From Amoebidium appalachense (lineage: Eukaryota; Protista; Ichthyosporea), in NCBI GenBank assembly GCA_963693365.1, contig CAVNZM010000010.1, positions 372,001 through 436,000 on the forward strand: a stretch of DNA of 64,000 nt, given 5' to 3'. Of the stretch, positions 1 through 64,000 are shown one piece after another. Within the stretch, counting starts at the first letter, position 1. The number at the start of each line of letters is the position of its first letter. A program made the translations under genes and the position numbers. The notes beneath the pieces were generated by a model that was given only the letters and a program-made list of their open reading frames with translations, had not been told where the DNA came from and ran no database searches.

Positions 1-418
1 GGTATGTGCTTTTTGGCTACGAGAGCCAATCACATACGGTTCACGGTTCTGTCCCATGGCTATCACGGTTCCAATAAACCTAGTGAGCCAATCGGGTGAC
101 AGTATTGATTATCGATGCATTCCACAGTCATACCTCACGGCTACTTGCATATTTTCCCATGATAAAACTATAACTTAACGCTCATGGTTCCTCTACTACG
201 TGTCGGTCCCATGTGGCTATTATATCTGTTTTCCCATGAATAATCCTGCAAGTTGCACGTGCACATATGTTTAACTCCATGCTCATGCGCACAAGACTGG
301 GGGGGACATGCATACTGGCCTACCTAAGATCAAACACAGTGGTATATATACATGTACACGTGTGCGTATATCTCAACCTGTGTACATCCATACTAGATAT
401 CCGGTATAATATACCACA
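1..418 (-). repeat. 3' LTR of element A (partial)
   Basis: Direct repeat of 14170-14590. Begins TGTGGTAT on the minus strand, immediately after the G-rich tract GGTGGGGCG (419-427, PPT). Confidence 0.95.
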
Positions 419-458
419 CGCCCCACCGTAAAAAGAAGTATGTCGTCCTCGACATACG

Positions 459-2308
459 TCACCATGCTCCACACAATGAGTCAATGTATCCGTGGAACGA
501 TGCAAGGTCACCTCTGCGTTGGTGGAACTCTCGGATCTTGTCCGGGCAGGCTAAGTCTTTCTCACACTCCCAAGAGGTGAATGAATCATCTTTGCCTGCC
601 CACTTGATCTGGTACCACTTGTAAGGGGTGGATTGCTTGCGCCGTTTCTGAATTCTTACGTCAAGCACCTTTTCCACCACCCACTCGTCCGGCAGAACCT
701 TGTTGAAGTTGTGACTATCGCCCGTGTCCGGGAGGTGAGAGAGATCTTGAGGCCGAATTCTATTTTGCTCACTCAATTCAAGCTGAATATCGTCCACGTG
801 CCACTTAGATTTCTTCATAGTTGCTAAGCTTCGGATCTCGTACGTGACCGGGCCGACCCTTTTGACGATTTCGTAACCCGTAATCCACCGTACATCCCAG
901 GCACCGATATTTTTGGCTTGATTCCGAACACGTATCCGTGCACCCTTCTTAAATTCACGAGCCACCGAGGGGCCTGGGGGCTCTCGTACGGCACGTTGCT
1001 GGACCACAGCACGGAGCAGAGGCAGACGGGCTAGTAACTCTCGCCGGTATGCCTTCCACTCTGGGTCCTTGAGTGCCGGGTGGTTACTGCTAAGAAGGGC
1101 AACGTCAGGGAATTGTGTTGCTTCTTGCCCGTACACAAGATAATACGGTGTACATTGCAAAATTTTGTGTGTTGTTGTGTTGTATGCATGTGTAACCACC
1201 GGCAACAGAGTGTCCCAATTAGTGTGCTCATAATTAACGTACTTTGAGAGTGCATTATTAATAAATCTATGAGACCGTTCATTGGAACCGTTGCTTTGTG
1301 GGTGATATGCAGAGGTGCTCACTTGTGCAATATTTGCTATACGGCAAATCTCAATAATTAGCTCATTGAGAAATTCTGATCCTTGATCACTCAAGAGTGT
1401 ACGAGGGGGGCCGTGTATATAGCAAATTACATTCATGAGTGCATGTGCAACATTAACGGCATGCTTAGATTGGATGGGCACAGTGATTAAATACTTCGTT
1501 GCCATATCCATAAACACACAAATGAAAGTATTACCATTTTTCGTTTCTGTGAACGGACCCATAAGGTCAACAGAAACACGAGAGAACATTTTTAAATTTT
1601 CGTATCTCTGTTCAAATGGCCTACTTCTCAAGTGTGGGTTATCGTTACGGCCTTGGCACTCAGGCTGTGTGCAGGCATTCACATAAGCAGTGATATCTTT
1701 GTGCATGCGTGGCCAATAATAATTGTATAATCTTTCGTAAGTTCGTTCAATGCCAGTATGAGCCCCCCCGTCGTGCACACTTCTTAATAAATCAGCACGA
1801 AGGATTTCGGGCACATACAGGCAACGACGACCATCCTTAGCCACATGATAAAGCACGTCATCCTCTATCACACACATTTGTGCTATTTTCTTAACCTTTT
1901 TGTATCCGAAATACTCAAGATTAAGACCGTGTGCAGCTCGTTCCCCCCCTGCCTGCCATTCTCGTTTGGCCTCGGCTTCGAGGGAGGCAAGCCACCGTAG
2001 CCACGTGATTATATCCTTACACATTTTGTCCCCCCCTGTGCCATCATAATTGCTTCCTTCTGATAGCCGGCACCACCGAGTGCAGAAAGGGAGGGCAGGC
2101 CGGCTTGACTGAGTGCAGAAATTTGTGCACATTTCAAGCGGTCTGGATCGAAAATGTGTGTGAATTCGAGTGCATCACCCCAATCAACAAACACTTCTGC
2201 TGGTTTCGAGCTAAGCTCGGATAAATCTGCTGTGAGAACCTCTTGTAATTCCTTTTTCACATCCCACCTTTCCAGTGGTATGTTTTCGTTCTCATGCAGA
2301 ATATATCC
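459..2308 (-). CDS. pol: Element A pol, C-terminal part: linker, integrase (HHCC, DDE) and chromodomain
   Basis: HDGGAH...C-x4-C zinc motif; VDLMGP, SDQGSEF and NGSNERSH catalytic motifs; C-terminal WVVEKVLD...YQIKWAG...SWECEKDL chromodomain. One frameshift lies in the C run near 2030-2037 (possible homopolymer error). Confidence 0.93.
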
Positions 2309-2912
2309 TGTCATGTGCTGAGCTGATTCGTATTAGTTTGCTTCTATATTTCGTGTTTTGGTGAGTGAATTTCGGGGGTTTTCTTGCATAGTGATGCCGG
2401 GGTCTAAGTGGGGTATTAGGAGATTAATCAGTGGTATGGGGAGAACCTGATGCAGCGGCGGCTGATTGTTTGGTGCGCGCGTGCATGCCCCATGCCTCTG
2501 CGTACTCTGCATGTTATATGTTGTATTGCTTCTTGCTGTGTGCTTGGCGAGACCCATGTTGCCTGCTCGCGTGTGTGTATGCTTATATGTATTGTGAGTA
2601 AAGGTGTGTACGTGTTGTAGTGCTGTAGGGGTGTCTCAGGTGGCGGTAGCCAATGGTGTGGAGTGCGTGTAGTCTGTGGGGGAGGGAGTGTTGTGATTGG
2701 CTGAATGTCACTGTGGTATTTGTCTGGCCAGTGGGCCGCGTGTCTGTGAAGTGTCTCGCGGGGTCGCGGGCTTTTCGAAGTTCTTCTCAGGACTCGTTTA
2801 CTCGCTTCCCACCCAACTCAAAGAAAAGTTTATACGTATACACGGTTTCGAGCCCCTTTAAGCGTGCAGATAGTTAGAGTAGTTTGTATACACACTGTTT
2901 GTTGCCACGACA
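2309..2912 (+). repeat. 5' LTR of element B
   Basis: TG...CA ends; direct repeat of 5211-5802. Confidence 0.95.
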
Positions 2913-2924
2913 AGCTACACCCCC
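2913..2924 (+). promoter_or_regulatory. Putative primer-binding site of B (AGCTACACCCCC)
   Basis: Abuts the 5' LTR. Identical to 12 nt of the site abutting A's 5' LTR. Reverse complement GGGGGTGTAGCT resembles a tRNA-Ala 5' end. Confidence 0.7.
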
Positions 2925-3029
2925 TTTCTCTGCAGTTTTTTGCAGGGAGGGGGCACACGCACTGTTAGTCCTTCTGGGCTGTTGCTTTCACCCCTAGTTT
3001 TTTTTTTTTTCTCTTCACGCCTAGCGGTT

Positions 3030-4252
3030 ATGAGTGGCTTTGACTTAGGACTTTTTCGACAGTTAGAGGTAGAAGAAACATACGCACACACAGGCCTACA
3101 GCTAGCAACAGTTGGCTTAGGCAACATGAGCAGTAGGACTAGTATCACAGGGGACTTAGTCCTCGCTCAGGACCTCGCCCTCCCTAGGTGGCTTAGCAAG
3201 CTCAGGGCTGTTTGCCCAGCAGAGGCCACTGAGGGGAAGGACGTCCAAACCCCTCGAAGGATGGCCACACTCATCATGAACACTGTGGGCTCCTCAATGC
3301 TGGAGTTCCAGAAAGTGCTTGAAAGCACACAACTGCCTACCGACGAGCCGTCTGTGCGCACAGTTGCGTACGCCCGCACAGTGGCGGGTGGAGCCCGCAA
3401 CCCGGCCGCACTCCAGCTGGCCGCCCGCTACGAAGCGGCCAACGCACAGGTGCCTCTTGTTACAGGCGGCTCCGGGGACGTGGTTGAGGTTTTGCGCCCC
3501 GAGAATGAGCTTGAGTGGCTTGACAGGGCGGTGGCCAAGTACCTGGACGACGGACGACGACGGGAGTTTGACGCTGATCTCAGACAAGCTAAGTTTACTT
3601 ACCCCCCCCTCACCATGTCTGTGACCGAAGCTAGAACCCACTTTGAGCTGTTCGAAGAAAATTTTCGTGCTCTTGTGTTTCTTGCTGGGTTGGAGAATGA
3701 TGCTCATGGAAAGTTTCATGCTGCGCGCTCTCTGTTTGTAGATAGCAGTCAGTTTGGTGAGCTGTTTGCTCAGCATGAAGAGCAAGCATGAGGTAGACTT
3801 GGCGTGGAGGGCGGTGAAGAGGCGGTTTTTAGCGCAGTTTGAGAGTAAGCTGGCTATGAGGGATAAGCATGCTGCTGAGGTTATGGAGGTAAAGCATGGG
3901 GCTGGGCAGGACACGCCTACACTCACTGCTCTCTTGAAGCAGGTGGCTGTGCTCACCAAGCGTCTGGAGGAGAAGGACCAGGGAGGGGGACCGGTACAGA
4001 GGAGACAGGTACCGGGACCGTGAGAGGGAGGAGGGCAGAGGCCTCAGAGGGGACCGGCGGCGGTCACCCTCCCCACGGCGCTACCAGCCCTACCAGCCAC
4101 GGCCACAGCGGGATGATGGGCCAGGCTGGCGTCGTCGGGCGGGACAGCAAGAGCCGGCGCCGGACTCTTTCCCAGGCACCTGCGACAACTGCAAGGAGCG
4201 GGGGCACACATACGCGTGGTGCAAACAGCCCCGTCGTGGGGGACGTCGGTGA
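3030..4252 (+). CDS. gag: Gag of element B (two frameshifts, near 3780 and 3985), ending in a CCHC zinc knuckle
   Basis: ATG at 3030 (MSGFDLGLFRQ), helical capsid-like region, Arg-rich region, then CDNCKERGHTYAWC at 4181-4222 and TGA at 4250-4252. Confidence 0.8.
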
Positions 4253-5210
4253 CCGTGTTGCAGGTATGAAGGTTTTATTAGGGGGTAGGCCGTCTCTTGG
4301 GTTGTTCAAGTTGTTGTTGTATGGGAGTTGTGTGGTGTGTTTTTTTCGCTGAGTTTTCTACTGGTGCCTGGCGTTTTCGACGTGTGTATGAGTCCTGTGT
4401 TGGCGACGTGTCTGGTTAGGGTCAGTGGAATAGAAAGTCCTGCTGCTGTCTGGGAGCTCGGCCCTCTGACGAGGGGGCTGGGGGGGGGGGTCGAAGTGTA
4501 GTCATGGCAGTGGCAGGCCCCCACTGTTGTGAACCCCCGTCGTCAAAGGGCCTGGTGCTGAGGCCCCTTGGAGTGGCTGCCCTGGGCCTGGTGTTGAGGC
4601 CCTTTGGAGTGGCTGCCCGTAGTGTTGTTGAGTAGTGTTGTGGTGCCCAGTGCAGCAGTAGGCCTTAGACACACCGCTGTGTAGGGCACGGTTGGGGCGG
4701 AGGCATTCCCAAACCACCGGGACCTACGTAGTAGGAGTCTTTGTCGGGTAGAGGAATGGCCAGCAAGAGAGTCTGGAGGTGTACGTCACATGAGTCTGGA
4801 GGTGTTCGTCATGGCATGTTTGGACAATGTGTTAGGAATTCTTTGTGGATGGGGCATGCTGAGTGTGGTTGTATGGATGGTGTCTGTTATCATGTCTGTT
4901 GCTATGTTCCACTCGATATAACATTGTGCCAGGGGCATGGGGTTTTGGGTGCAGGTTGTGGACGGGGGCAGAGGTGCATCTACAGGGCAACGTCAGTGGC
5001 GGTTCATAATTATCCTTGTTTTGGGGTTGGGTTGGGTATTAACCATGGTGGGGTGGTGTGTGGATGCATGTATATGTTTTATGTTATATGTTAAATGTTG
5101 CTTCCTGCATGGGTAGCGGTAGTTGTAGTCGCTCAGCACATAACTTTATTTTGTTTTTAGGTAGTTTTTACTGAGGTGGAACTCAGTTATTTTCTGTGCG
5201 AGGGGGGAGT

Positions 5211-5802
5211 TGTCATGTGCTGAGCTGATTCGTATTAGTTTGCTTCTATATTTCGTGTTTTGGTGAGTGAATTTCGGGGGTTTTCTTGCATAGTGATGCC
5301 GGGGTCTAAGTGGGGTATTAGGAGATTAATCAGTGGTATGGGGAGAACCTGATGCAGCGGCGGCTGATTGTTTGGTGCGCGCGTGCATGCCCCATGCCTC
5401 TGCGTACTCTGCATGTTATATGTTGTATTGCTTCTTGCTGTGTGCTTGGCGAGACCCATGTTGCCTGCTCGCGTGTGTGTATGCTTATATGTATTGTGAG
5501 TAAAGGTGTGTACGTGTTGTAGTGCTGTAGGGGTGTCTCAGGTGGCGGTAGCCAATGGTGTGGAGTGCGTGTAGTCTGTGGGGGAGGGAGTGTTGTGATT
5601 GGCTGAATGTCACTGTGGTATTTGTCTGGCCATCTGTGAAGTGTCTCGCGGGGTCGCGGGCTTTTCGAAGTTCTTCTCAGGACTCGTTTACTCGCTTCCC
5701 ACCCAACTCAAAGAAAAGTTTATACGTATACACGGTTTCGAGCCCCTTTAAGCGTGCAGATAGTTAGAGTAGTTTGTATACACACTGTTTGTTGCCACGA
5801 CA
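5211..5802 (+). repeat. 3' LTR of element B
   Basis: Direct repeat of 2309-2912, preceded by the PPT. Confidence 0.95.
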
Positions 5803-7944
5803 TATCCTATACGGCTTAACCCATCAGCATCGTGCATGGTAGGGCCAGGACGGTAGTATAGATCGAAATCATACTCCTGCATTTCCAAAGCCCACCGTTG
5901 CATCCGTTCGTTTGCTATCCGTTTGACACCTTTAAGAGAAAGACAGGGCTTATGGTCACTTTCCACAATAGTATTCACTCGACCATACACGTACACCCTA
6001 AACTCTTTCAGTGCCCAATAGATTGCATGCGTTTCTCGTTCGATGTTGCTCCACCTACGTTCGGTAGGTTGAAACATCCGGGAGGCATATGCCACCGTGC
6101 GGAACTTGCCATCTTTTTGTTTTTGATACAGGCAAGCCCCTTCCGAGAACCGACTAGCATCACAACGAATAAGAAACTGACCCCCCGTGGGGGAAAGATC
6201 GGGCAGGGCAAGCACTTCCTCCGATAACGCCGATTTTAAATCTTTAAACGAGCGATCTAATTCGTCCGTCCATTTTAACCGTCGGTGTTTTTCTCCGTAA
6301 CACTCGGCATTCATGGGTCGGGCTCGCTCTGCATAATTTAAAATGTGACGGCGGAGATAGGAAGTAATACCCAGAAAACACCGGAGTTGGTGTAGTGTGT
6401 TTGGTACCGGCCAATCTTTCACTGCCTGAACCTTTTTCGGGTCGGGCCGAATGCCATTCACACCTACAATCCAACCCAAAAACGGTATTTCCGTTAGCCC
6501 AATGTATGTCTTTGCCCCATCGAGCTTAACACCATATTCACCGAGACGGGTGAAAAGTCGGTCAAGCTTCTGTAATAATTCTTTTTCGGTGTGTGCACCC
6601 ACAGCTAAATCATCGGCATATATCACCACGTCATCGGCCAGGGGGGCCAAAATCTGTGTCATGATAGATGCTAGCTGGGACGGGGAAGTACTGAGCCCCT
6701 GTGGTGCCACACAATAACGATACTGCACACCAGCCACAGAAAATCCTGTTTTTTCACGTGACTCAGCGTCTAGCAGTATTTGGTAAAAGGCACCCGACAT
6801 ATCAGCTTTACAGAAATACTTATACCCAGCCAACTTCTCTATTTGTTGTTGCAAGTTGGGCATGGGCCAGGCAGATTTTCGAATTTGCTTGTTAAGAGCA
6901 CGAAAATCAGTCAGCAGACGGTATTTTCCGTTTGGTTTTCGTATTACGAAGGTGGGTGAATTATACTGGCTGTGTGCTTGTTCCATCTGCCCTCTACGAC
7001 ACATATCCTCCACGATCTCCTTTGCAGCCTGCTCTTTCACTTGTTCCAACCTCCACTGTTTTAATCGAATCGGTGGGTTATCTCCCGTGTCTATGTGCAT
7101 GGTGAATCCTTTAATCTGAGGAAATTCGTCGGGGTCCGTAGTGATGAAGCAACGAGAGTGTGCTTCTAATAGTTTCTTTACCTCCGGAAGCATACTCTGA
7201 GGCACCCTATTCCAATCAAAACCGTGGGGAGCCTGGCCGGCATCGTGTGCACCCCCACCCGAAATTTCCGAAATTTTCCGCGGGGGGGGGGGTTTTCATG
7301 ATCAACGGCACACATTGATTGGTCGATCGGTGAGTGTATCGGACCGCCTCGTGTCCCACTCACATGCCCTTCGTGCCCACACATGTTATCGGTAGGCACC
7401 CGGCCCGGTGGCACGGCCGGAGGTGAATTGGGTAGGCAACCTTCTCCACCCCCCGTTGCCCACCTGATGCACTGCGCTATTGCACCAACGACGGTTTGTG
7501 TACGACTGGGGTGGGGTTCGGCTTGCAAAACACTCAGTTCGTGTATGTACTCATGTCGGCTCGTAGGAACGAAATGGCCGATGGTACCGAACACGCTCAA
7601 ATCCGGACCCACACCATTTTCGCACACAACAGCAATAGATTTATCCACACTAATTTCACAGATGGTGGGGGGGGACTTATCTCGAAATTCACGAGTAGGC
7701 TCGAAGATACCGAGGGTGCCAGCAGCAGCAGCAGCAGCAGTCACCTGCACCGTTGCACGTAATACACATCCAAAGCCTGATTTGACGGTGGTGTCGTGCT
7801 TGACGGTAACAGGACACATTGTGTAGGGGGTGTGCAAAGATGACGTCGGCACCACCATCCCCGACACCAGTGTTAGTGAGTGTGCTTGATGATTAGTGGT
7901 GGCAATGTGTTTGTTGGCAAAATCGTTCCCAATAATCATGTCAT
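5803..7944 (-). CDS. pol: Element A pol, middle part: protease C-terminus, spacer, reverse transcriptase and RNase H
   Basis: IIGNDF (protease); LLTDFRALNK, APQGL and YADD (RT); CDAS, ERETHA, SDHKP and DADGLSR (RNase H). One frameshift lies in the G run at 7282-7292. Confidence 0.95.
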
Positions 7945-8424
7945 TGTAAACAGTTGGACTAGTTAGGATAAGGCAGAGTACAACTGAATCAAAATAAAGA
8001 CAGAGAACGGGTAGAAAGGCACACGTGGCCAGGTTGCTTTTACTATGGGCCGACTCAGTCTGTCTCAGACTTCACTGATGTGATCCCCGTACTGGGACGG
8101 CTTTGTTATATAGCCCCCAGGTTTCGGATCAAGGCCCAGGATTGGTTCATCCGCGGCCAGCGCGGGTGGCAACATGCCATTCGTGATTCTGGTGCGGTCC
8201 GAGCCAGTCAGACCTTTGTCCTATTTATGCAAACCTCTTATTGGTTCACTTCGTTTATGTGGTATGCAGCTGAAGAACCATATATGGTTCAATTCTTAGG
8301 TCAGAGTGAGTCCTATTGGTGCGGACATAATATTTATGTGATATTCATGACAAAGCACGAATCGTGTGCTAGTAGATCACATTCTTTAGTAAACATGTAC
8401 AGTTCATGTGTACAGTTGTTTACA
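7945..8424 (-). repeat. 3' LTR of element C
   Basis: Direct repeat of 11019-11498. Confidence 0.95.
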
Positions 8425-8899
8425 CTCCCCCCCTTGTCGGGAGCCTGGTGGTGTCGTTAGACAAGCAAACCACCAGGCTGAGAGGCGATAAACAACCTTC
8501 AGCGAGAATTCTTGTGTGTGCCGAGCTGCTGGACAGAACAGAGCAAGGACGGTGGAATAGAGTTGTGCACGTCTATGAGCACTTCTTCATTTGCCAAAAC
8601 GTAAATTCATGCAGCATTCTTCTGTGATTTCATTTTCGTGGCGAAGATTGTTGCAGAGTGTGCGTGCGAATAATTCGCTAAGCCTTCGTCTCTGTGCTTG
8701 GCTTTTCTGTAGAAGTAGTATTTTCCTTTTTGGGAATTTTTCCTTTTTAGGATACTCCCGCAGATTCGTTTTCAATTGCGAGTAATTTGGTTGTGTGGAT
8801 GAATGATCATACCAAACATTCGATAATGAATATAACTCGAGCCTTAGGTCACTTCGTAGCTCAGGTAGTGGTGGATAGCTTCAAGGCTTAGCCACTGCT

Positions 8900-10000
8900 C
8901 CTTATCCCGGTTCTACCATAAGACTGTAAGGCGAGTCACCATGGCCGGAAAAGCCGCTTCTTTCATGAACAAATAGCACTTCTTTCCTTTCAGCTTTAAC
9001 TCTGCATCATCGGAGCTGGGAAAAACATGAATAAAAATGCCCAAGTGTTCTTCGTTGGGCGACATAAAGAAATATATCACCCGTCAGAACCAGTAAAAGC
9101 CCGGTTCATAATTCATAAGAAGAGGGTAGGCAAAGCAAGCCTTCTTCAGAAAACACCTGCTTCCATTCGTGAGCAGTTTTCGTATCCCATTTGCCAGCCA
9201 TTTTCGTTGAGCAGGGGGATTCCAGGCATAATACATTCTTCTGGAGGCTTGGCCTAAAAAGAAAAGTCGTCGGAGTCGCCCTTTCTTTTGTAAGCAACTT
9301 CGTGAGCGCGCTTCGTGTTTTCATATCCTCCAGTGCAGGTCTGGATGGTGCCCCATCCTCTGCTTCATTTGTAGGTGGCCCTACTGTAGGTTCTGTTCGT
9401 TGTGTGGAATACCAAAACCATTCGTATTCGTGGAACTGCTTTGTGCTGTGCTTTCTTTCGTGTTGGTGTTCATGAAGTTACCCCGTTCACACACCCTACT
9501 TCTTACATACATTAGATGTAAGTAGCTGCCTGGTGAGTGTGTGGTTCGTGTTCGTGGCATTCTTCTGTTCCTTCGTGAGAAGAATATTCGTTTTAGCAGA
9601 GGTGCCCAATAAGGCAGCTTGTGGGGTTGTCTCCCGCATGTGCCCATTGGTGGGGTATGCACGTGCTAAATTGTTACAGTGTCATCATATTGCAAGGGAA
9701 TAACATGGTCACCTCCGTACCAGGGCCTAGTAGGTACACATGATGGTCCGATGTGTTAGTCAACAACACCTTGCATTCGTATTCGTATTTGTCTTCCACG
9801 TCACTTTCTTCAGTAGTGAAGGAGGGTATTCGTAATTCGAAACTGAAAGGCTTCCAGCCAAAATACTGACACTGTATGATGGGGTTGTGAGGGAGCGGTG
9901 CCCATACCACATTCTTTTGTTCTGGTGGGGGTGTGCCGGCAGCTAGTGCAAGGCTTGACAGTGTAATTGGTATGTTACACCGTATTGCCACAGACGGGCA
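8900..10000 (-). pseudogene. Highly decayed pol remnants in element C
   Basis: Stop-riddled minus frame contains SPNEEHLGIFIHVF...LKLKGKKCYLFMKEAAF, resembling the post-YxDD RT segment. CKVLLTNTSDHHVYLLGPGTEV resembles the PR-RT spacer (dUTPase-like) seen in some Gypsy elements. Confidence 0.5.
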
Positions 10001-10921
10001 TTCACCTTAAAATTCGTACCCAACACCTTCTTTGTTTTTCACATGCATGAACAAAAGTTCTGCATCGACTTTATTACATGCCTTTTGTGCACCAAGAGTG
10101 CAAATTCGTTAGGGCGTGGCACCAGGAAGGGCCGCCATACATGAGTCAGGCATATGTTCGTAATGTGTTTAGGCATGCCAGCATACATTCATGCGCATGT
10201 TGTGCATCCTGGGCGCTAAACTATGGGGCATGCTGTATTCGAGAACAGCAAGGGATTCGAAGCATGCATGCAACACTACTTTCATAAGATCTTAGGTCCT
10301 ACATGCTATAGCAACAGCGACTATCTTCTTCGTTAAGTGCATTTGTGCTGAAAGTGGCCGTGCATCTGGCTTGCGAGTGTGGACGTGCATGCGGTGGCAT
10401 GGACACGATGGCAGTGTGCAATAGGGCAATGCACGCAAGGGCAACGGTTTTATTTTCTTCCTAACATAGAGGGGGCTGTGTGCATTGCAACCCAAGCAGT
10501 GTTGTGCATTCGTCCTTTCATTTTCGTATTTCCAGTTCATTTTGCTTTCGTTTTTCGTTTTTTGTCGTTTGATAACTTCGTTACTTCGTTTTGTTTTCGT
10601 GTTGCATTCATTTCGTATTTCCTCTATGCAATCGTTTGTCGTTAATTCTTTATTTCATTGCGTATTCGTGATGGTTCGTTTTTCGTTGGTTCATTGCTTC
10701 GTTAGCAATTCTTTATTCGTTTGTTCGTGTATTCGTTGTTTCGTTGTGTATTCGTTTTTCTTCACATTTTTGATGTGTCGTAGCAAAAGAAGTTTTACAT
10801 GCTTTCAATTCTTTCCGTGTAGGTGGGCTGGCCACTTCAAACTTGTAGGTGTATATATTCTAAGCCGGACAAGGAAAGATGTGCCTATCATCGGGGTAAA
10901 AAGGATTGTGATCGGCCATGG

Positions 10922-11005
10922 GAGATTCTTGAGCTGATTGAAAGATGTGAGATTCTTGAACTGATTGAAAGATGTGAGATTCGAAGGATGCGAGATTCTT
11001 GAACT
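10922..11005. repeat. Short tandem repeat (GAGATTCTTGAACTGATTGAAAGATGT-like, ~3 copies) in C's 5' UTR
   Basis: Visible directly in the sequence, next to C's PBS. Confidence 0.8.
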
Positions 11006-11017
11006 GCGCGGTCGCCA
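11001..11017 (-). promoter_or_regulatory. Canonical tRNA-3'-end PBS of element C
   Basis: TGGCGACCGCGCAGTTC lies 1 nt after the 5' LTR and starts with TGG (complement of CCA). Confidence 0.8.
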
Positions 11018-11018
11018 A

Positions 11019-11498
11019 TGTAAACAGTTGGACTAGTTAGGATAAGGCAGAGTACAACTGAATCAAAATAAAGACAGAGAACGGGTAGAAAGGCACACGT
11101 GGCCAGGTTGCTTTTACTATGGGCCGACTCAGTCTGTCTCAGACTTCACTGATGTGATCCCCGTACTGGGACGGCTTTGTTATATAGCCCCCAGGTTTCG
11201 GATCAAGGCCCAGGATTGGTTCATCCGCGGCCAGCGCGGGTGGCAACATGCCATTCGTGATTCTGGTGCGGTCCGAGCCAGTCAGACCTTTGTCCTATTT
11301 ATGCAAACCTCTTATTGGTTCACTTCGTTTATGTGGTATGCAGCTGAAGAACCATATATGGTTCAATTCTTAGGTCAGAGTGAGTCCTATTGGTGCGGAC
11401 ATAATATTTATGTGATATTCATGACAAAGCACGAATCGTGTGCTAGTAGATCACATTCTTTAGTAAACATGTACAGTTCATGTGTACAGTTGTTTACA
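11019..11498 (-). repeat. 5' LTR of element C
   Basis: Direct repeat of 7945-8424. Confidence 0.95.
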
Positions 11499-12017
11499 GT
11501 CATGCTTAATATTTTTAATTACTAAGCAAGGCCACATGAATGTTTGAGAACCGAGGCATAACGGGAGCATTACTTCACCACTCACAGCTAGAGCTTTATC
11601 GTTTTTCCTTACAGAAGTAACAATCACATCCGAGGGTTGCAAAGCAAACTCCTGCATGTGTCGGGAAAAAACAGCTTCACTAACCACCGTGAATGATGCC
11701 CCAGTGTCAAACAATGCAAAGTATTTTTCATTACTCAACGTAACATTAACATAGATACGTCTTCCTGCATTGCATATGGCACTTATATTGAACACTTTTC
11801 TTATTCTATCGAGTGTTCGAAGTTTCTTTGTGGGGGGGGATAGGTGTGGGGGGGTGGGGGGTCGGGGGTCGGGGGAAGAGGGCTCGGAGGGGGGAATATC
11901 AGAAGAAGCCGGGGCAGAAGCACATGGTATAGGCACATTTTTAATTACTTTTTCGTGACCCACTGGGTCACAATGTGCAATACATGCCGTATTCGTGCTT
12001 CCAGCACCGGCAATTAC
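11499..12017 (-). CDS. pol: Element A pol, N-terminal part: aspartic protease, in frame with gag
   Basis: ALFDTGAS active site. The frame is open from directly after the gag TAG (12018-12020) to the C insertion. Confidence 0.9.
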
Positions 12018-13913
12018 CTATTTATCACTTTGCTTGCCCTTGTTCTTCTTGGCAGCTCGGGTGGGGCAATCTTTAAAACGATGCCCCGGCTGCTTGCAAG
12101 CCCAACAATTGGGCCCCCTCTTATCTTTCTTATTATCCTTAGCCCATTTGCCCCCCCCATTAGATTTACCCTTACCACCAACATTACCCCCACTACCTCC
12201 GTGGCCACCCCCGTGACCACCACCACCACCACCATGCCCCCCATTACCACCACCCATCTCATCTACAGCACCCACATTACGGTTACATTTTAAATTGTGA
12301 GCACCCACATCAGCCTCATACCGTCGGATGACACGGGCCATGGCTTGCTTGAGGGTGGTTGCAGCCCGGGCCTCCGAACAAAGGTCCGGGTAGTCGTTGA
12401 GGGTACGTTGGTAATGATGAAGCACAACCTCGGGCATGTTCTTGAGACCCGAGTTGGAGACGATGCAATTAAATTTCTTGTGGAATGTCTTTATCGAGGC
12501 CCGAGTGTGCATAAAACGAAGCTTGTTCAGCTCGTTAAAATGCTCCTCCTTACGTTCCTTGTCTAAATACTTCTCAAGGAACTTAGCCCAAAAATCGTCG
12601 ATGCCGGTGCACGTGGAAAGGTCGACGTTGTCGGCAGCATCTCGGGGGTCCCCGGGGCCCATGCACATACGAATAAACATCAACGTGCGATTTAAGCCCA
12701 CCAACTCCATAATACAAAAGAAAATTAAATGATGTTGGAGTTGTTTGTAGAATTCGTCGATATCGGCATCTGCCTCGAGCATAGGACGGGACTGAATTGC
12801 TGCTGAGGGGATGTGTTGAATCTTTTCCTTCCCCTCCCGGTCGTCACCGTTGCCGTCGTTACCGTCACCGTCATCACCACCGTCACCGCCGTCACCACCA
12901 CCATCACCACCACCGGCACCACCAGCACCGTTAGCACCTCCGGCACCATTAGCACCACCGGCACCACCGTCAGCACCACCGTCCGGGGGAGGTGGGGGGC
13001 CACCGCCACCTGCATTACCATCCCCATTTTCGTTGGCAGCAGGAGGGGGGTTGTTATGCCCCCCCCGGCCACCACCACGTCCACCCCTACCACCACGGCC
13101 AGAGTTCTTACGGGGGCCCCGTCCGGCACGAACCCACGAGGGGAGCATGCTTGGATGAAATTTCCGAGGGCCCCGGTTACCATAATAAGTAACCACTAGG
13201 TCGAGCTCACCACGACTAAGAGTCACTAACTGATTGATAAATTCATGTGACTTAGTGATGGGGGAAGACTGCCCTGAAAGGCACGCGTAGTTTTGCCTGG
13301 AAGTGAATACATTCACGAGGGCGAGTAGTTGTTGGTGGAGCATGGTGAGTGCCGACGACGAACGGTACAGTGCCGTGCGCGCTGTACAGCTGGCAAACTT
13401 CGATACCAAAAATGCCAGCAGCACGAACAGAAGGAGACACCCAAGAACGCACCAGCACCAAGCTGCCAGGCTCACGCCCGTCTTGTTGTGCAAATTTGCA
13501 TACTCCGTTAGGGCGCGTATCAGGGCGTCTGGTGCCTCTGCTTGCGTTTGCGTTGACCTCGACTTCCAGCCCGTGGAGAAGGTCGACTGATGAATGTCGA
13601 TTGTCTTCAGGTGGCAGGTCTTCGGGGTCAAATGATTGGCCATAGTCGGTTTCCCCTGAACGAAAAGAGAAGCAGTATTGATTGTCGTGTTGCAGGTCGT
13701 GTGAACGGAAGTAGACACGGTCGAGCAACGGAATGTCTGCTCCAGGAGGGTGCCACGGTGAAGAGCCGGGGGGGGAAAGGGGAACATTATAGCCGAGTTC
13801 TTCAAGGAAAATGAGGTCGGCGTTTCGAGCTTCCCCCCCATGCAGGCCACTAGGGCCGGCATTGTTGTCACCAAGGTGGTTAGACATGTTAGGACCCAAA
13901 CAACTAAAAACAT
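12018..13913 (-). CDS. gag: Gag of element A with an N-terminal signal-peptide/transmembrane-like extension
   Basis: C-terminal CWACKQPGHRFKDC zinc knuckle, capsid-like helical region and Gly-rich linkers. First ATG at 13913 gives MFLVVWVLTCLTTLV. Hydrophobic SLAAWCWCVLGCLLLFVLLAFLVS at 13401-13472. Confidence 0.85.
   Translation of the reverse strand: MFLVVWVLTCLTTLVTTMPALVACMGGKLETPTSFSLKNSAIMFPFPPPALHRGTLLEQTFRCSTVSTSVHTTCNTTINTASLFVQGKPTMANHLTPKTCHLKTIDIHQSTFSTGWKSRSTQTQAEAPDALIRALTEYANLHNKTGVSLAAWCWCVLGCLLLFVLLAFLVSKFASCTARTALYRSSSALTMLHQQLLALVNVFTSRQNYACLSGQSSPITKSHEFINQLVTLSRGELDLVVTYYGNRGPRKFHPSMLPSWVRAGRGPRKNSGRGGRGGRGGGRGGHNNPPPAANENGDGNAGGGGPPPPPDGGADGGAGGANGAGGANGAGGAGGGDGGGDGGDGGDDGDGNDGNGDDREGKEKIQHIPSAAIQSRPMLEADADIDEFYKQLQHHLIFFCIMELVGLNRTLMFIRMCMGPGDPRDAADNVDLSTCTGIDDFWAKFLEKYLDKERKEEHFNELNKLRFMHTRASIKTFHKKFNCIVSNSGLKNMPEVVLHHYQRTLNDYPDLCSEARAATTLKQAMARVIRRYEADVGAHNLKCNRNVGAVDEMGGGNGGHGGGGGGHGGGHGGSGGNVGGKGKSNGGGKWAKDNKKDKRGPNCWACKQPGHRFKDCPTRAAKKNKGKQSDK
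13252..13887 (-). CDS. Overlapping 211-aa ORF of unknown function in the 5' gag region
   Basis: ATG at 13887 (MSNHLGDNNAG); stop-free for 211 codons in a different frame from gag; codon pattern looks coding-like. Confidence 0.45.
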   Translation of the reverse strand: MSNHLGDNNAGPSGLHGGEARNADLIFLEELGYNVPLSPPGSSPWHPPGADIPLLDRVYFRSHDLQHDNQYCFSFRSGETDYGQSFDPEDLPPEDNRHSSVDLLHGLEVEVNANASRGTRRPDTRPNGVCKFAQQDGREPGSLVLVRSWVSPSVRAAGIFGIEVCQLYSAHGTVPFVVGTHHAPPTTTRPRECIHFQAKLRVPFRAVFPHH

Positions 13914-13962
13914 AGTACTTGCTTGATACGAGCACACTTGCAGCACAAAAACTAGCGCTGCA

Positions 13963-13978
13963 GGGGGTGTAGCTCAGC
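13963..13978 (-). promoter_or_regulatory. Putative primer-binding site of A (GCTGAGCTACACCCCC)
   Basis: Abuts the 5' LTR end (…ACAACA) with no TGG. Plus strand reads GGGGGTGTAGCTCAGC, a tRNA-Ala-like 5' end. Confidence 0.72.
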
Positions 13979-14590
13979 TGTTGTATAATATGATCGTGTG
14001 TCTGTGACAAACAATATGTTTATAAATGAACGGGGTTGACTAGACCACGCTTTGCTTATTTACGTGCTAGTCCTACTTACACCTAGTAAGCCGAGCACAC
14101 TGAGTGAGCTCTGAAGCCCCCGACATGCCCTTATATCGGAGCTCGCACAGCGGCTCAGACATGCGCATCGGTATGTGCTTTTTGGCTACGAGAGCCAATC
14201 ACATACGGTTCACGGTTCTGTCCCATGGCTATCACGGTTCCAATAAACCTAGTGAGCCAATCGGGTGACAGTACTTGATTATCGATGCATTCCACAGTCA
14301 TACCAGTCACGGCTACTTGCATATTTTCCCATGATAAAACTATAACTTAACGCTCATGGTTCCTCTACTACGTGTCGGTCCCATGTGGCTATTATATCTG
14401 TTTTCCCATGAATAATCCTGCAAGTTGCACGTGCACATATGTTTAACTCCATGCTCATGCGCACAAGACTGGGGGGGACATGCATACTGGCCTACCTAAG
14501 ATCAAACACAGTGGTATATATACATGTACACGTGTGCGTATATCTCAACCTGTGTACATCCATACTAGATATCCGGTATAATATACCACA
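13979..14590 (-). repeat. 5' LTR of element A (612 bp)
   Basis: Imperfect terminal inverted repeat TGTTGTATAATAT / ATAATATACCACA; the 14170-14590 part matches 1-418. Confidence 0.9.
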
Positions 14591-14604
14591 GTGTGTGTGT
14601 GTGT

Positions 14605-14643
<39 letters not shown>

Positions 14644-16000
14644 TGTGTGTGTGTGCGCGTGCGCTATAATTTTGTAGTGATGTGTTTCTCAAGCCAATCA
14701 ATACATCTAATAAACAGGTCGTAGTTACGCGTGTTTAGTATAAAATCAAGGATGTTGTAATTTACAGGTAGGCTATCTTTCTGGGTGTCTGTTGTGAATG
14801 TGACGTGTGTGTGTTGCGGTATTATGTGGTCTATCAAACTACATTTGGCGATACATGACCGGTTAAACTGGTGTGTGTGTGTGTTGTTTGGGCATGCAAA
14901 TGATGCCACCTTATACTTATTAGATCTCCACTGTATAGCACGTGTACAGTAAAAGCGTGGTAATTGATCAATAATACCATCAGCTAGAGAAAGACCAGTT
15001 CTACAGGAAGGTAATATGTATTTAGATGTTATACATTTGCGAGTGCCATATTTGGCAATATGGTTGAGGCGGTCAGTATATATAAAACGAGACATAAGGC
15101 TTAGTTTTTCAAGGTGTATGCTTTCATCGGGTCTAGTGTCGTGTGGTATCTTTTTCCATTTGTTATATTGCGTGATTATCTTGTGATTGTGTACATGTTT
15201 AATAAGTAAGTGGCAGTCCAAAGTTACACACACACTATTGCGGGGTTTATTTGTATTTGTGCCCAGGGGAGAAGGGGAGAGAGAGGGGAGGAAAGAGGGG
15301 AGAGGTGAGGAGGGGACAGGTCGGATAGAGAAGAGAGGGTGGGAGGGCAAATACTTCTTTAAGCGGCTTATGTGCTTATTGAATTTCAGCGCGAGATAGG
15401 ATACTCTAGCAGCTATTGGGACCAGACCATATATCGAGAGCGTTACAGGCCCAGGTTTACAACAGTTGTTAGATAGAAAGGAGGCAACTTCTGCTTCAAG
15501 GAAATTTGCCAAGGGTTTAAGCGCTCTAGTTCTCTCTTTCTTGATCCAAGCGGCGAGAAGGGGTAAACCATATTCACATGCCGGGAAGACAAAAGTGCGA
15601 ATAAATGTAAGTCTAATAGAAGGATGGAGGGGTGTGTCTTTAAAAATATTAGCCGAGAAGAAAGCTAACCGCTTACGAGCCAACTCTACCCTCTTTTCGA
15701 CCATATGGGGAAACATAACACCAACAGAATCAACCGGAACACCAAGATATTTGTATTCTGGAACTATAAGTACAGGTTTAGATGATAATGTAAATGTGTG
15801 TAAATTGTTAGCTATATCAGGTACAAGAACACCACATTTGTCTATGTTAAGGATCATAAGGTTTGCCTTGCACCACTCTGACACTACATCGAACAATCTT
15901 TGCAGGCGTCTAGGGGTACGGGCAAGGAGGGACAGATCATCAGCATAGAGAAGTGCAGGCGGAAAGTTATTAATAGGGTCATCGGTCGAATAAATCCAGT
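14591..16000 (-). mobile_element. 5'-truncated non-LTR retrotransposon (LINE-like) ending in a (CA)n tract
   Basis: RT C-terminal half, then stop at 14664-14666 followed almost immediately by (CA)n on the element strand. The 5' boundary is approximate. Confidence 0.85.
14664..15990 (-). CDS. Non-LTR reverse transcriptase, C-terminal part (5' truncated)
   Basis: ALLYADDLSLL (~15930-15955), NIDKC, YKYLGV, RTFVFPACEYGL, and a C-terminal Cys/His-containing segment. Confidence 0.88.
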
Positions 16001-16038
16001 CAAAAGAAAAAGTTTTACAGCGCCAACACTTGTGTTAC

Positions 16039-19485: not shown

Positions 19486-20065
19486 ATGGGCTCTGCTTAT
19501 GACGCATACTGTGCACATGGCTGATGTTGCATACTTGAATGTTTGCCTTTGCATGTGTCCTGCACCATGCTTCTCGTCGTGTATGCGTACCTCGTACCAT
19601 GTTCCGCATTCAAACCCCCCCAGTCTTCTTTCAGAGGTGTCTTTCAGGACAGACCACTGTGTGGAGACCGCTTTACTTCCATGAAATCGGGCATGGTTGC
19701 TCTGTGTCGTGCATCTGTAAGCACATATGCATTTTTCGCTGCACTGCATTAGTTTGCACACACATCTTCGCCGTTTTGCTCACCTTGCTTGCATAAGCAA
19801 CCCTGCTCGTCTTCGATCAAGACGGGTTGACCCGCCCAAGTTCAGTTGATGTTGCTGTCTGAGTTGGAGCGTCGTATATACGCGGGCTAAGGGGTCGAAA
19901 CTCAGACGCAATTGATGACTTCGGTCCTCCCTGAGGATGGGCTCTGCTTATGACACATACTGTGCGCATGGCTGATGTTGCATACTTGAATGTTTGCCTT
20001 TGCATGTGTCCTGCACCATGCTTCTCGTCGTGTATGCGTACTTCGTACCATGTTCCGCATTCAAA
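19486..20065 (+). mobile_element. Partial-tandem retroelement 3' fragments, family S1 (19486-19614 and ~19622-20065), each ending in poly(C); probably Penelope-like
   Basis: Shared 3' end ...GTTCCGCATTCAAA+(C)n with variable 5' ends; near-identical to 43273-43576 (minus). Confidence 0.75.
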
Positions 20066-20079
20066 CCCCCCTCCCTCCC

Positions 20080-20119
<40 letters not shown>

Positions 20120-22197: not shown

Positions 22198-22820
22198 CAT
22201 GTTACCCGCCGGCGTAACATAACTCGGACTATCGGTTTGGCTTTTTTCAAGCCCAAAGCAATGGGTGATACCATATTTCCGGCTGACATCCGGGGGCATA
22301 GCTTTCCGTTCGAAGACGATAAAGTTCCGCCCTAGTAAGCGTGTTACTACCCTGCGGCGTGGGTCAAATCTCATATTTTCCCCTCTGATTACGAATTCTG
22401 TGGCCTTCGGGACTTAATTCTTTTCAGCTGGTGTAGTATGTTAGCCAGGGAAGTATCGACTTAGGTATCGACGGGGGAGCTTCCTAGAAGCCCCGTCTCC
22501 TGAGTTCCTATCTATATTTTTCTTGCTTCTGCTTACTGCTGCAACTTTAACCCCCGGCCTTTCCCACTGCCCTTGCCTGCATAAGCAACCCTGCTCGTCT
22601 CTGATCAAGACGGGTGACCTACTCATGTTCAAGTGAAACAGTATCTGAGTTGGGTTTCGTTAACGAGGGGAATAGGTCGAAACTCGGGTACTGTGGATGA
22701 CGTGGGCCCCCCCTGAGGATGGGCTCTGCTTATTATGCATACTCTTTATGTATGGCTTGCATTCTGCATCGTGTTATCCGTTTGTTCTTGTGTACTTCGT
22801 ACTTTTTGACGCATTCAAAA
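22198..22820 (+). mobile_element. Retroelement 3' fragment, family S2, flanked by C runs; probably Penelope-like
   Basis: Near-identical to 62484-63105 (minus). Encodes …IGLAFFKPKAMGDTIFPAD…*, resembling the post-thumb motif of PLE RTs. Shares 3' UTR motifs with S1. Confidence 0.75.
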
Positions 22821-22985
22821 CCCCCCCCCCCCCCCCCCCCCCCTTGCACCCCCCAAACAGGGTAAAGAACCTACAAAACATAGCTGTCAAGCTAAAAACA
22901 CTGATAACACGGATACATAAATACTGCACAGCCCAAACTTCAAAATCAAATGCCCATATCCGCTGAAAGTGATCAAGGCACCCGT

Positions 22986-49236
<26,251 letters not shown>

Positions 49237-51542: not shown

Positions 51543-64000
<12,458 letters not shown>

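Follow-up and report, generated by a model that had tools for sequence, protein, structure and literature searches.

Two unrelated LTR retrotransposons of Amoebidium appalachense carry, directly after their 5' LTRs, the same putative primer-binding site, and this site is complementary to the 5' end of a tRNA. Our results suggest that both elements likely begin minus-strand synthesis on a fragment from the 5' end of a host tRNA, 10-16 nt long and probably cut on the template, a reading that we favor with modest confidence. When such a cut and the use of a ready-made tRNA fragment are counted together, priming by a 5' tRNA piece is distinctly probable.

A nest of three LTR retrotransposons

The first 14.6 kb of the window (the whole 64-kb stretch of DNA that was analyzed) consist of three nested LTR elements, here called A, B, and C. 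Contigs from three public DNA runs bridge the insertion points of B and C and, because they join across both points, the three elements are separate mobile units. All are young, since their LTR pairs are 98-99.6% identical. The features of the nest are as follows, with the evidence for each in brackets.

13979-14590, minus strand: 5' LTR of A, TG...CA, 612 nt (self-BLAST, termini)
13963-13978, minus strand: putative primer-binding site of A, complementary to tRNA nucleotides 1-16, tRNA-Ala type (sequence comparison)
12021-13973, minus strand: gag-like ORF of A, 651 codons from stop to stop, with a C-terminal CCHC knuckle (translation, Pfam)
7181-12017, minus strand: protease region of A, split by element C (weak aspartyl-protease matches, C-skipping contigs)
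5803-7295, minus strand: reverse transcriptase and RNase H of A (Pfam RVT_1, RT_RNaseH)
459-2174, minus strand: integrase of A with C-terminal chromodomain (Pfam Integrase_H2C2, rve, Chromo)
419-427, minus strand: polypurine tract of A, GGTGGGGCG, before the 3' LTR (sequence)
1-418, minus strand: 3' LTR of A, truncated by the window start (self-BLAST)
2309-2912, plus strand: 5' LTR of B, TG...CA, 604 nt (self-BLAST, termini)
2913-2924, plus strand: putative primer-binding site of B, complementary to tRNA nucleotides 1-12 (sequence comparison)
3126-4250, plus strand: gag-like region of B, frame broken in this copy (translations)
5200-5802, plus strand: polypurine tract of B, GAGGGGGGAGT, and 3' LTR, the latter at 5211-5802 (self-BLAST, sequence)
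7945-11498, minus strand: element C, with target site duplication GTCAT, inside the protease region of A (self-BLAST, termini)

Element A has the protease, reverse transcriptase, RNase H, integrase order of Ty3/gypsy elements, together with TG...CA LTRs and a polypurine tract, and not the Ty1/copia order in which the integrase precedes the reverse transcriptase. The closest solved structure to its reverse transcriptase is that of Ty3, and the chromodomain at the C-terminus of its integrase (Pfam Chromo, E 2.4e-9) makes it a chromovirus by domain content. Its 5' LTR and the 3' LTR piece at 1-418 are 99.3% identical over 421 nt (self-BLAST). The knuckle of its gag-like protein matches Pfam zf-CCHC at E 0.002, which is under Pfam's own cut-off. 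The gag-like ORF (13973-12021, minus strand) opens inside the putative primer site, and its long N-terminal part includes a hydrophobic stretch of 19 residues (173-191, mean hydropathy 2.7), separated from the core by a Gly-rich linker; a membrane-anchored Gag would be unusual, if the stretch acted in this way.

Element B lies inside the pol of A (2309-5802, plus strand), just past the reverse transcriptase and RNase H, flanked by the target site duplication TATCC at 2304-2308 and 5803-5807; its 5' LTR is 98% identical to 5211-5802 (self-BLAST), and contigs that skip it have their joint at 2302-5802. It has only a gag-like region, with a CCHC-like knuckle near its end, and no pol; the region had no match in Pfam or in the Atlas. 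Element C, whose LTRs lie at 11498-11019 and 8424-7945, has no recognized coding domain, and the contigs that skip it place the joint at 7939-11499 in the protease region of A. The polypurine tracts of B (5200-5210, GAGGGGGGAGT) and C (8425-8435, AAGGGGGGGAG) are alike despite their differing primer sites. The tract of B is closer to that of C than to that of A, and B may therefore depend on an autonomous family other than that of A.

In the rest of the window lie exons of two genes, one for a myosin with a TH1 tail and one for a phospholipase C, from which the host can be recognized as an intron-rich eukaryote. The myosin exons are of class I type (head and TH1, 24572-46370, minus strand), those of the phospholipase C (X and Y) lie at 54277-61800 on the same strand, and the introns of both genes are densely filled with poly-G/C runs and CA repeats. 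Some of the acceptors consist only of (CA)n followed by G. A fragment of a non-LTR-type reverse transcriptase with very high summed contig depth adjoins the 5' LTR of A (14664-16034, minus strand). Two families of dispersed repeats in opposite orientation, one at 22198-22853 and 62451-63106 (656 nt at 99%) and the other at 19486-20104 and 43263-43743 (83-96%), are probably small mobile elements.

A shared site complementary to tRNA 5' ends

Straight after the CA that ends its 5' LTR, element A reads GCTGAGCTACACCCCC (13963-13978, minus strand), and element B reads AGCTACACCCCC (2913-2924, plus strand). The 12-mer common to both occurs twice in the 64 kb when both strands are counted, and only at these two places. 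The elements are otherwise unrelated: their LTRs, as the original prediction had proposed, do not align at E<0.1 (the best match is 11 nt long, E 0.15), nor do their gag-like proteins (best E 12). By simple arithmetic, the odds of a common 12-mer in a fixed register are near 1e-7, as are those of matching any one of about 100 tRNAs over 15 nt at its 5' end. The shared site is real and not a product of chance. The 11-nt match between the two LTRs is a CCAAT-type motif, TGTGATTGGCT, found at 14203-14193 (minus strand) and 2692-2702 (plus strand), i.e., at the nearly equal LTR positions 388 in A and 384 in B (E 0.15).

In a canonical site, TGG comes at most a few bases after the LTR. According to the original prediction, neither A nor B starts in this way and C does, and we found TGG after the 5' LTR of C and in neither of the others. 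Element C, where the terminal CA is followed by T and then TGGCGACCGCGCAG (also given as TGGCGACC), thus has a site of the ordinary TGG type at 11017-11004 (minus strand) and acts as an internal control. We take this site to match the 3' end of a tRNA-Arg; among the 97 tRNA genes screened, none matched it.

The sites of A and B match the other end of the tRNA. The A site is complementary over 15 of 15 nucleotides to the tRNA-Ala 5' end GGGGGUGUAGCUCAGUGGU listed in Table 1 of PMC3653858, the part of that paper used here, which gives fragments of tRNA-Ala(AGC/UGC) 5' ends. Among tRNA genes from phage and giant-virus contigs, which belong to organisms other than the host, it pairs over 16 of 16 nucleotides with a tRNA-Ala(CGC) gene (locus L191), or over 18 nt when the terminal CA of the LTR is included, and over 14 nt with a second gene (L180); the B site pairs over 12 nt with each. 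Five C close both sites exactly, at tRNA base 1, where the mature tRNA begins. The complementarity covers tRNA nucleotides 1-16 and not the anticodon stem-loop used by copia and Ty5. No tRNA gene was found within the 64-kb window. In one of the fetched loci (L241, 334-430), a tRNA-Ala 5' piece is present in tandem copies about 28 nt apart.

The fetched loci contain 97 called tRNA genes, with a bias toward Ala that stems from the search patterns, and 27 of the genes start with GGGGGTGTAGCT. Because six of these are Lys, Phe, Ile, or Asn genes, the other 21 being Ala, the 12-mer of B is not specific to Ala. The original assignment to a tRNA-Ala 5' end is thus upheld by the documented complement, by its presence after two unrelated LTRs, and by variation that fits the tRNA partner (see below), but it is too narrow for B.

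Self-priming as an alternative for element A

Element A might instead prime itself like Tf1, from a transcript that starts near 14101 and provides its first 11-12 bases as primer, once these have annealed to the site and been cleaved off. The resemblance to a tRNA would then be a relic, and B would be primed otherwise or also by a tRNA. Three features of the LTR of A are relevant.

14130-14135, minus strand: TATA-like box TATAAG (motif; putative promoter)
14103-14098, minus strand: Inr-like TCAGTG, 32 nt beyond the TATA-like box (motif)
14090-14100, minus strand: GTGTGCTCGGC, imperfect complement of the A site, candidate self-primer or lock (duplex)

The two promoter-like motifs lie just upstream of the complement, although the last base of TCAGTG mismatches the INR consensus TCAKTY given in the consulted part of PMC3601003. 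Opposite the first 12 bases of the site, GTGTGCTCGGC forms 11 bp with one bulge and one G-U, in a duplex that is flush with the end of the LTR. Only 1 of 1000 random 25-nt windows is as good when flush, for a window that was picked after the fact. One fold of A includes a second duplex between LTR and U5, and the integrase of A has a chromodomain, as in the Tf1/sushi chromoviruses, which self-prime (PMC6317226 and 10.1101/2022.12.06.519325, both in part). The complement and the predicted start thus have the geometry of Tf1 self-priming, with an imperfect 11-bp duplex.

The bulge and the G-U nevertheless count against this duplex (-17.7 kcal/mol, compared with -34.5 if the match were perfect), an equal one exists somewhere in 39 of 200 shuffled LTRs, and the CCCC of the site is left uncovered. 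The sequence GTGTGCTCG is also present in the leader of A, where it would compete for the site. With a 54-nt leader, no hypothetical start from LTR position 486 onward pairs at least 4 site bases with the RNA 5' end; in the scan of such starts, the paired site bases number at most 9 in A (start at LTR position 485) and reach 8 in B, whereas control C, with its ordinary TGG site, shows 10-11 at five starts (its LTR bounds were 3 nt off in the fold and start scans, which leaves its use as control unaffected). B has the same core, yet no flush LTR complement above chance, 65 of 100 shuffles being as good.

The phylogeny may also count against self-priming. In a quick reverse transcriptase tree of 38 chosen rows, with weak deep forks and no Tf1 or Skipper reference among them, A and ten of the 37 chosen proteins form an 11-row clade (SH-aLRT 100) that stands apart from the plant chromovirus rows, i.e., those of rice and Closterium. 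The relatives of A are 28-38% identical to it in a word-based protein search and up to 45% in an exhaustive one. Four of the eight clade relatives scanned with a full-length match list have a chromodomain (P0136, P0148, P0158, and P0177).

Self-priming cannot explain a perfect tRNA complement common to two unrelated LTRs, and we regard it as unlikely for A. The original prediction had dismissed it for both elements. This holds in that neither LTR includes a perfect complement and B has none above chance, but the imperfect flush duplex of 11 bp makes the dismissal too strong for A.

Leader structure and family variation

Priming by a tRNA 5' piece is also consistent with the predicted folds of the two leaders, in which a hairpin follows the site at once or after one base.

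13939-13962, minus strand: 8-bp hairpin from the base right after the A site, predicted to abut tRNA base 1 (folds)
13930-13937, minus strand: leader segment GTGTGCTC, predicted to pair back on the A site when no primer is bound (fold)
2926-2949, plus strand: 10-bp hairpin one base past the B site (folds)

Both hairpins have a TGCA stem and a T-rich loop. In the predicted folds of each element, a downstream stretch can pair back over the site; in B, this is the GGGGG at 2949-2953, opposite the CCCCC of the site. When co-folded with the tRNA sequence, the 16-mer of A and the 12-mer of B bind fully and the adjacent hairpin stays in place, abutting tRNA base 1, with dimer minimum free energies of -81.2 (A) and -61.2 (B) against leader ensembles of -57.4 and -53.1. 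The last four C of the A site are unpaired with both internal complements and are paired only with the tRNA in these folds. A search of Rfam with positions 1-16000 returned four matches, all far under the cut-off and none at the primer sites.

The same arrangement bears on whether the site is a signal other than a primer site, for instance a splice acceptor or a place where a tRNA fragment docks for regulation or packaging. Both elements read CCCCC...TGCAG, i.e., pyrimidines and then CAG, and some host acceptors are CCCCCAG or TGCAG. However, the TGCAG is paired in the conserved predicted hairpin, none of the 15 joints listed (of 39) is splice-like at these sites, and the site lies flush with the LTR, where a primer must bind, neither A nor B having another candidate. 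We find such a role very improbable.

Contigs of divergent A subfamilies provide further evidence, with 14 variant positions listed in 13880-14120 (for the most divergent A contigs, 6 of the 14 differences of record 10 of X7 fall outside those listed). We classified the 12 at 13917-13967, leaving out the LTR-internal positions 14059 and 14062. Eight are unpaired, three keep the pair, and one breaks it (P 0.007 against random substitution), in a test that takes the fold from the window copy and covers the listed variants, those near contig ends lying outside. This gives moderate support to the retention of the predicted hairpin pairing in the A family. None of the listed variants falls in the leader segment at 13930-13937.

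The sole change listed in the A site itself, at 13967, turns GGGGG into GGGGA in one contig (depth 186/1084 in run X4). GGGGA starts 13 of the 18 loci of a tRNA-Ala pattern scan, 16 of which are called tRNA-Ala. A switch to the other common tRNA-Ala start is what one would expect of a site that is rewritten from the tRNA pool or under selection to match it, even if the change is a common transition and a G-U pair is kept in every model. The variation of the A family appears to fit a tRNA partner.

A proposed mechanism

The sequences, their positions, the tRNA complementarity, the predicted folds, and the variant pattern, all from one organism or its close kin, suggest a sequence of annealing, cutting, and priming. 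Gag would open the leader that is otherwise folded over the site and anneal the 5' strand of the tRNA (acceptor strand and D-stem), which would place tRNA base 1 directly against the hairpin after the site. A cut near the LTR boundary would yield the 3'-OH, the simplest agent being the element's own RNase H, as in Tf1. The RNase H of Tf1 is said to cut an RNA duplex to make the primer, a result attributed to Levin in 1996. The primer of A would be 16 nt long and that of B 12 nt, or 14 and 10 nt should integration remove two bases by trimming, and the priming tRNA would begin GGGGGUGUAGCUCAG(C/U), i.e., be of GGGG(G/A)UGUAGCU type. Plus-strand synthesis would then copy the primer to its 5' end, run off, and thereby rewrite the site from the priming tRNA. 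The LTR complement of A may act as a lock on the site or be a relic of self-priming.

Alternatively, the primer could be a ready-made cellular small RNA, either a D-loop-cleaved tRF-5 or the transcript of a tRNA-derived repeat, trimmed to fit. Such a fragment would carry no cost of tRNA unfolding. RNase T2-type cuts leave a 3' phosphate, which cannot prime without healing. Fragments of suitable size have been described, among them 5a-tRFs that arise by D-loop cleavage and measure about 15 nt, and tiny tsRNAs of 13 and 16 nt (PMC12105621, in part), whereas the tRNA-Ala fragments in the consulted part of PMC3653858, where 5' fragments of this tRNA are abundant in at least one animal, are 18-24 nt long. 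In A, the match extends to tRNA position 16 and in B to position 12, the limit being set in each by the start of the LTR, and this favors a cut or trim measured on the template over a single cellular fragment. A ready-made fragment thus seems quite unlikely, yet it shares the annealing step with the template cut, and sequence alone cannot separate the two. The original prediction of a primer of 12-16 nt agrees with the lengths of both sites, but these lengths suit a cut on the template better than a cellular tRF-5 of fixed length.

Searches for the site elsewhere

We searched broader collections for relatives of A and for the site. Scans of related loci in the viral collection (35 and 3 loci) gave no clear best match in the clade of A. 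Searches with the A reverse transcriptase in metagenomes, with P0136 in viral contigs, and with the clade alignment in prokaryote genomes found nothing. A scan for the site pattern covering 22 of 64 parts of the viral collection gave 120 loci, none with a reverse transcriptase match. In metagenomes, it gave 49 loci, one with an integrase, and none of the 17 viewed in detail was an LTR end. The locus with the integrase upstream (L227) has its match in coding-like sequence after a chromodomain, with no polypurine tract or LTR, and was discarded as a chance match. A metagenome gypsy polyprotein, P0210, has a C-terminal TatD DNase domain.

Comparison with known priming modes and implications

The consulted part of a survey of plant elements (PMC6317226) recognizes three primer types, namely whole tRNAs that prime by their 3' end, half tRNAs produced by a cut in the anticodon stem, and self-primers, and leaves 6% of elements without a known primer. 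Canonical priming by the 3' CCA end (Ty3, most gypsy elements, and element C) also uses a host tRNA and a site beside the 5' LTR, but the tRNA primes from its other end and does not have to be cut. Half-tRNA priming (copia, Ty5, Osser, Bryco, and Bianca, and fungal Copia and Helenus) is closer, because it uses a 5' tRNA piece truncated at its 3' end and a site without TGG (PMC6317226 and PMC10886601, in part). In those systems, however, the anticodon stem-loop of an iMet, Ile, Tyr, or Asp tRNA primes Ty1/copia elements: the mode is confined to this group in the plant survey (the same part of PMC6317226), and priming at the anticodon loop was extended to four tRNAs in fungal Copia and Helenus (PMC10886601, in part). 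The site described here, in contrast, pairs with nucleotides 1-16 (A) or 1-12 (B) of an Ala-type tRNA, and A is a Ty3/gypsy element.

Tf1, Tf2, and Tj1 have an RNA 5' end that anneals beside the LTR and must be cut to a short primer, as proposed for A, and they resemble A in their chromodomain integrase and structured leader (PMC4600332 and 10.1101/2022.12.06.519325, in part). The primer of Tf1 is nonetheless its own 5' end, held in a structure of three duplexes, whereas A and B share the site after two unrelated LTRs, an LTR complement is lacking in B, and a host RNA makes the best partner. The dictyostelid Skipper is alike by its description in the consulted part of PMC5006619, as a chromodomain gypsy element with a pyrimidine-rich site, no TGG, no LTR complement, and a primer left unknown there; by the same description, it differs in having a degenerate polypyrimidine stretch with a characteristic C. 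Its site sequences, compared by description only, may bear on the novelty of the site of A and B.

In the original prediction, no element primed in this way was known to have been described, and in the literature searched, which lay mostly outside subscription papers and Repbase, we found no description of a gypsy element whose site matches tRNA bases 1-16. A term search of the available parts of two transposable element surveys of unicellular holozoans returned no mention of a primer site. The site of A and B thus appears to represent a form of tRNA-fragment priming not described for gypsy elements in this literature.

More tentatively, the clade of chromodomain gypsy elements to which A belongs might carry out Tf1-style priming in trans, with an intact tRNA 5' end annealed, docked on the hairpin, and cut by RNase H at the LTR boundary; we find this general form rather doubtful. 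If it were true, A, whose own likely 5' end also carries a complement that mimics the tRNA, would stand midway between tRNA priming and self-priming, and the mechanism might explain other gypsy elements without a known primer.

Pairing with tRNA bases 1-16 fits none of the three primer types set out in the consulted part of PMC6317226. If real, it would mean that 5' tRNA fragments can serve as primers of replication, and it would suggest how self-priming and tRNA priming interconvert. It also provides a simple test for elements without a known primer, Skipper included: the bases after the LTR should be compared with the 5' ends of tRNAs, and not just with their 3' ends.
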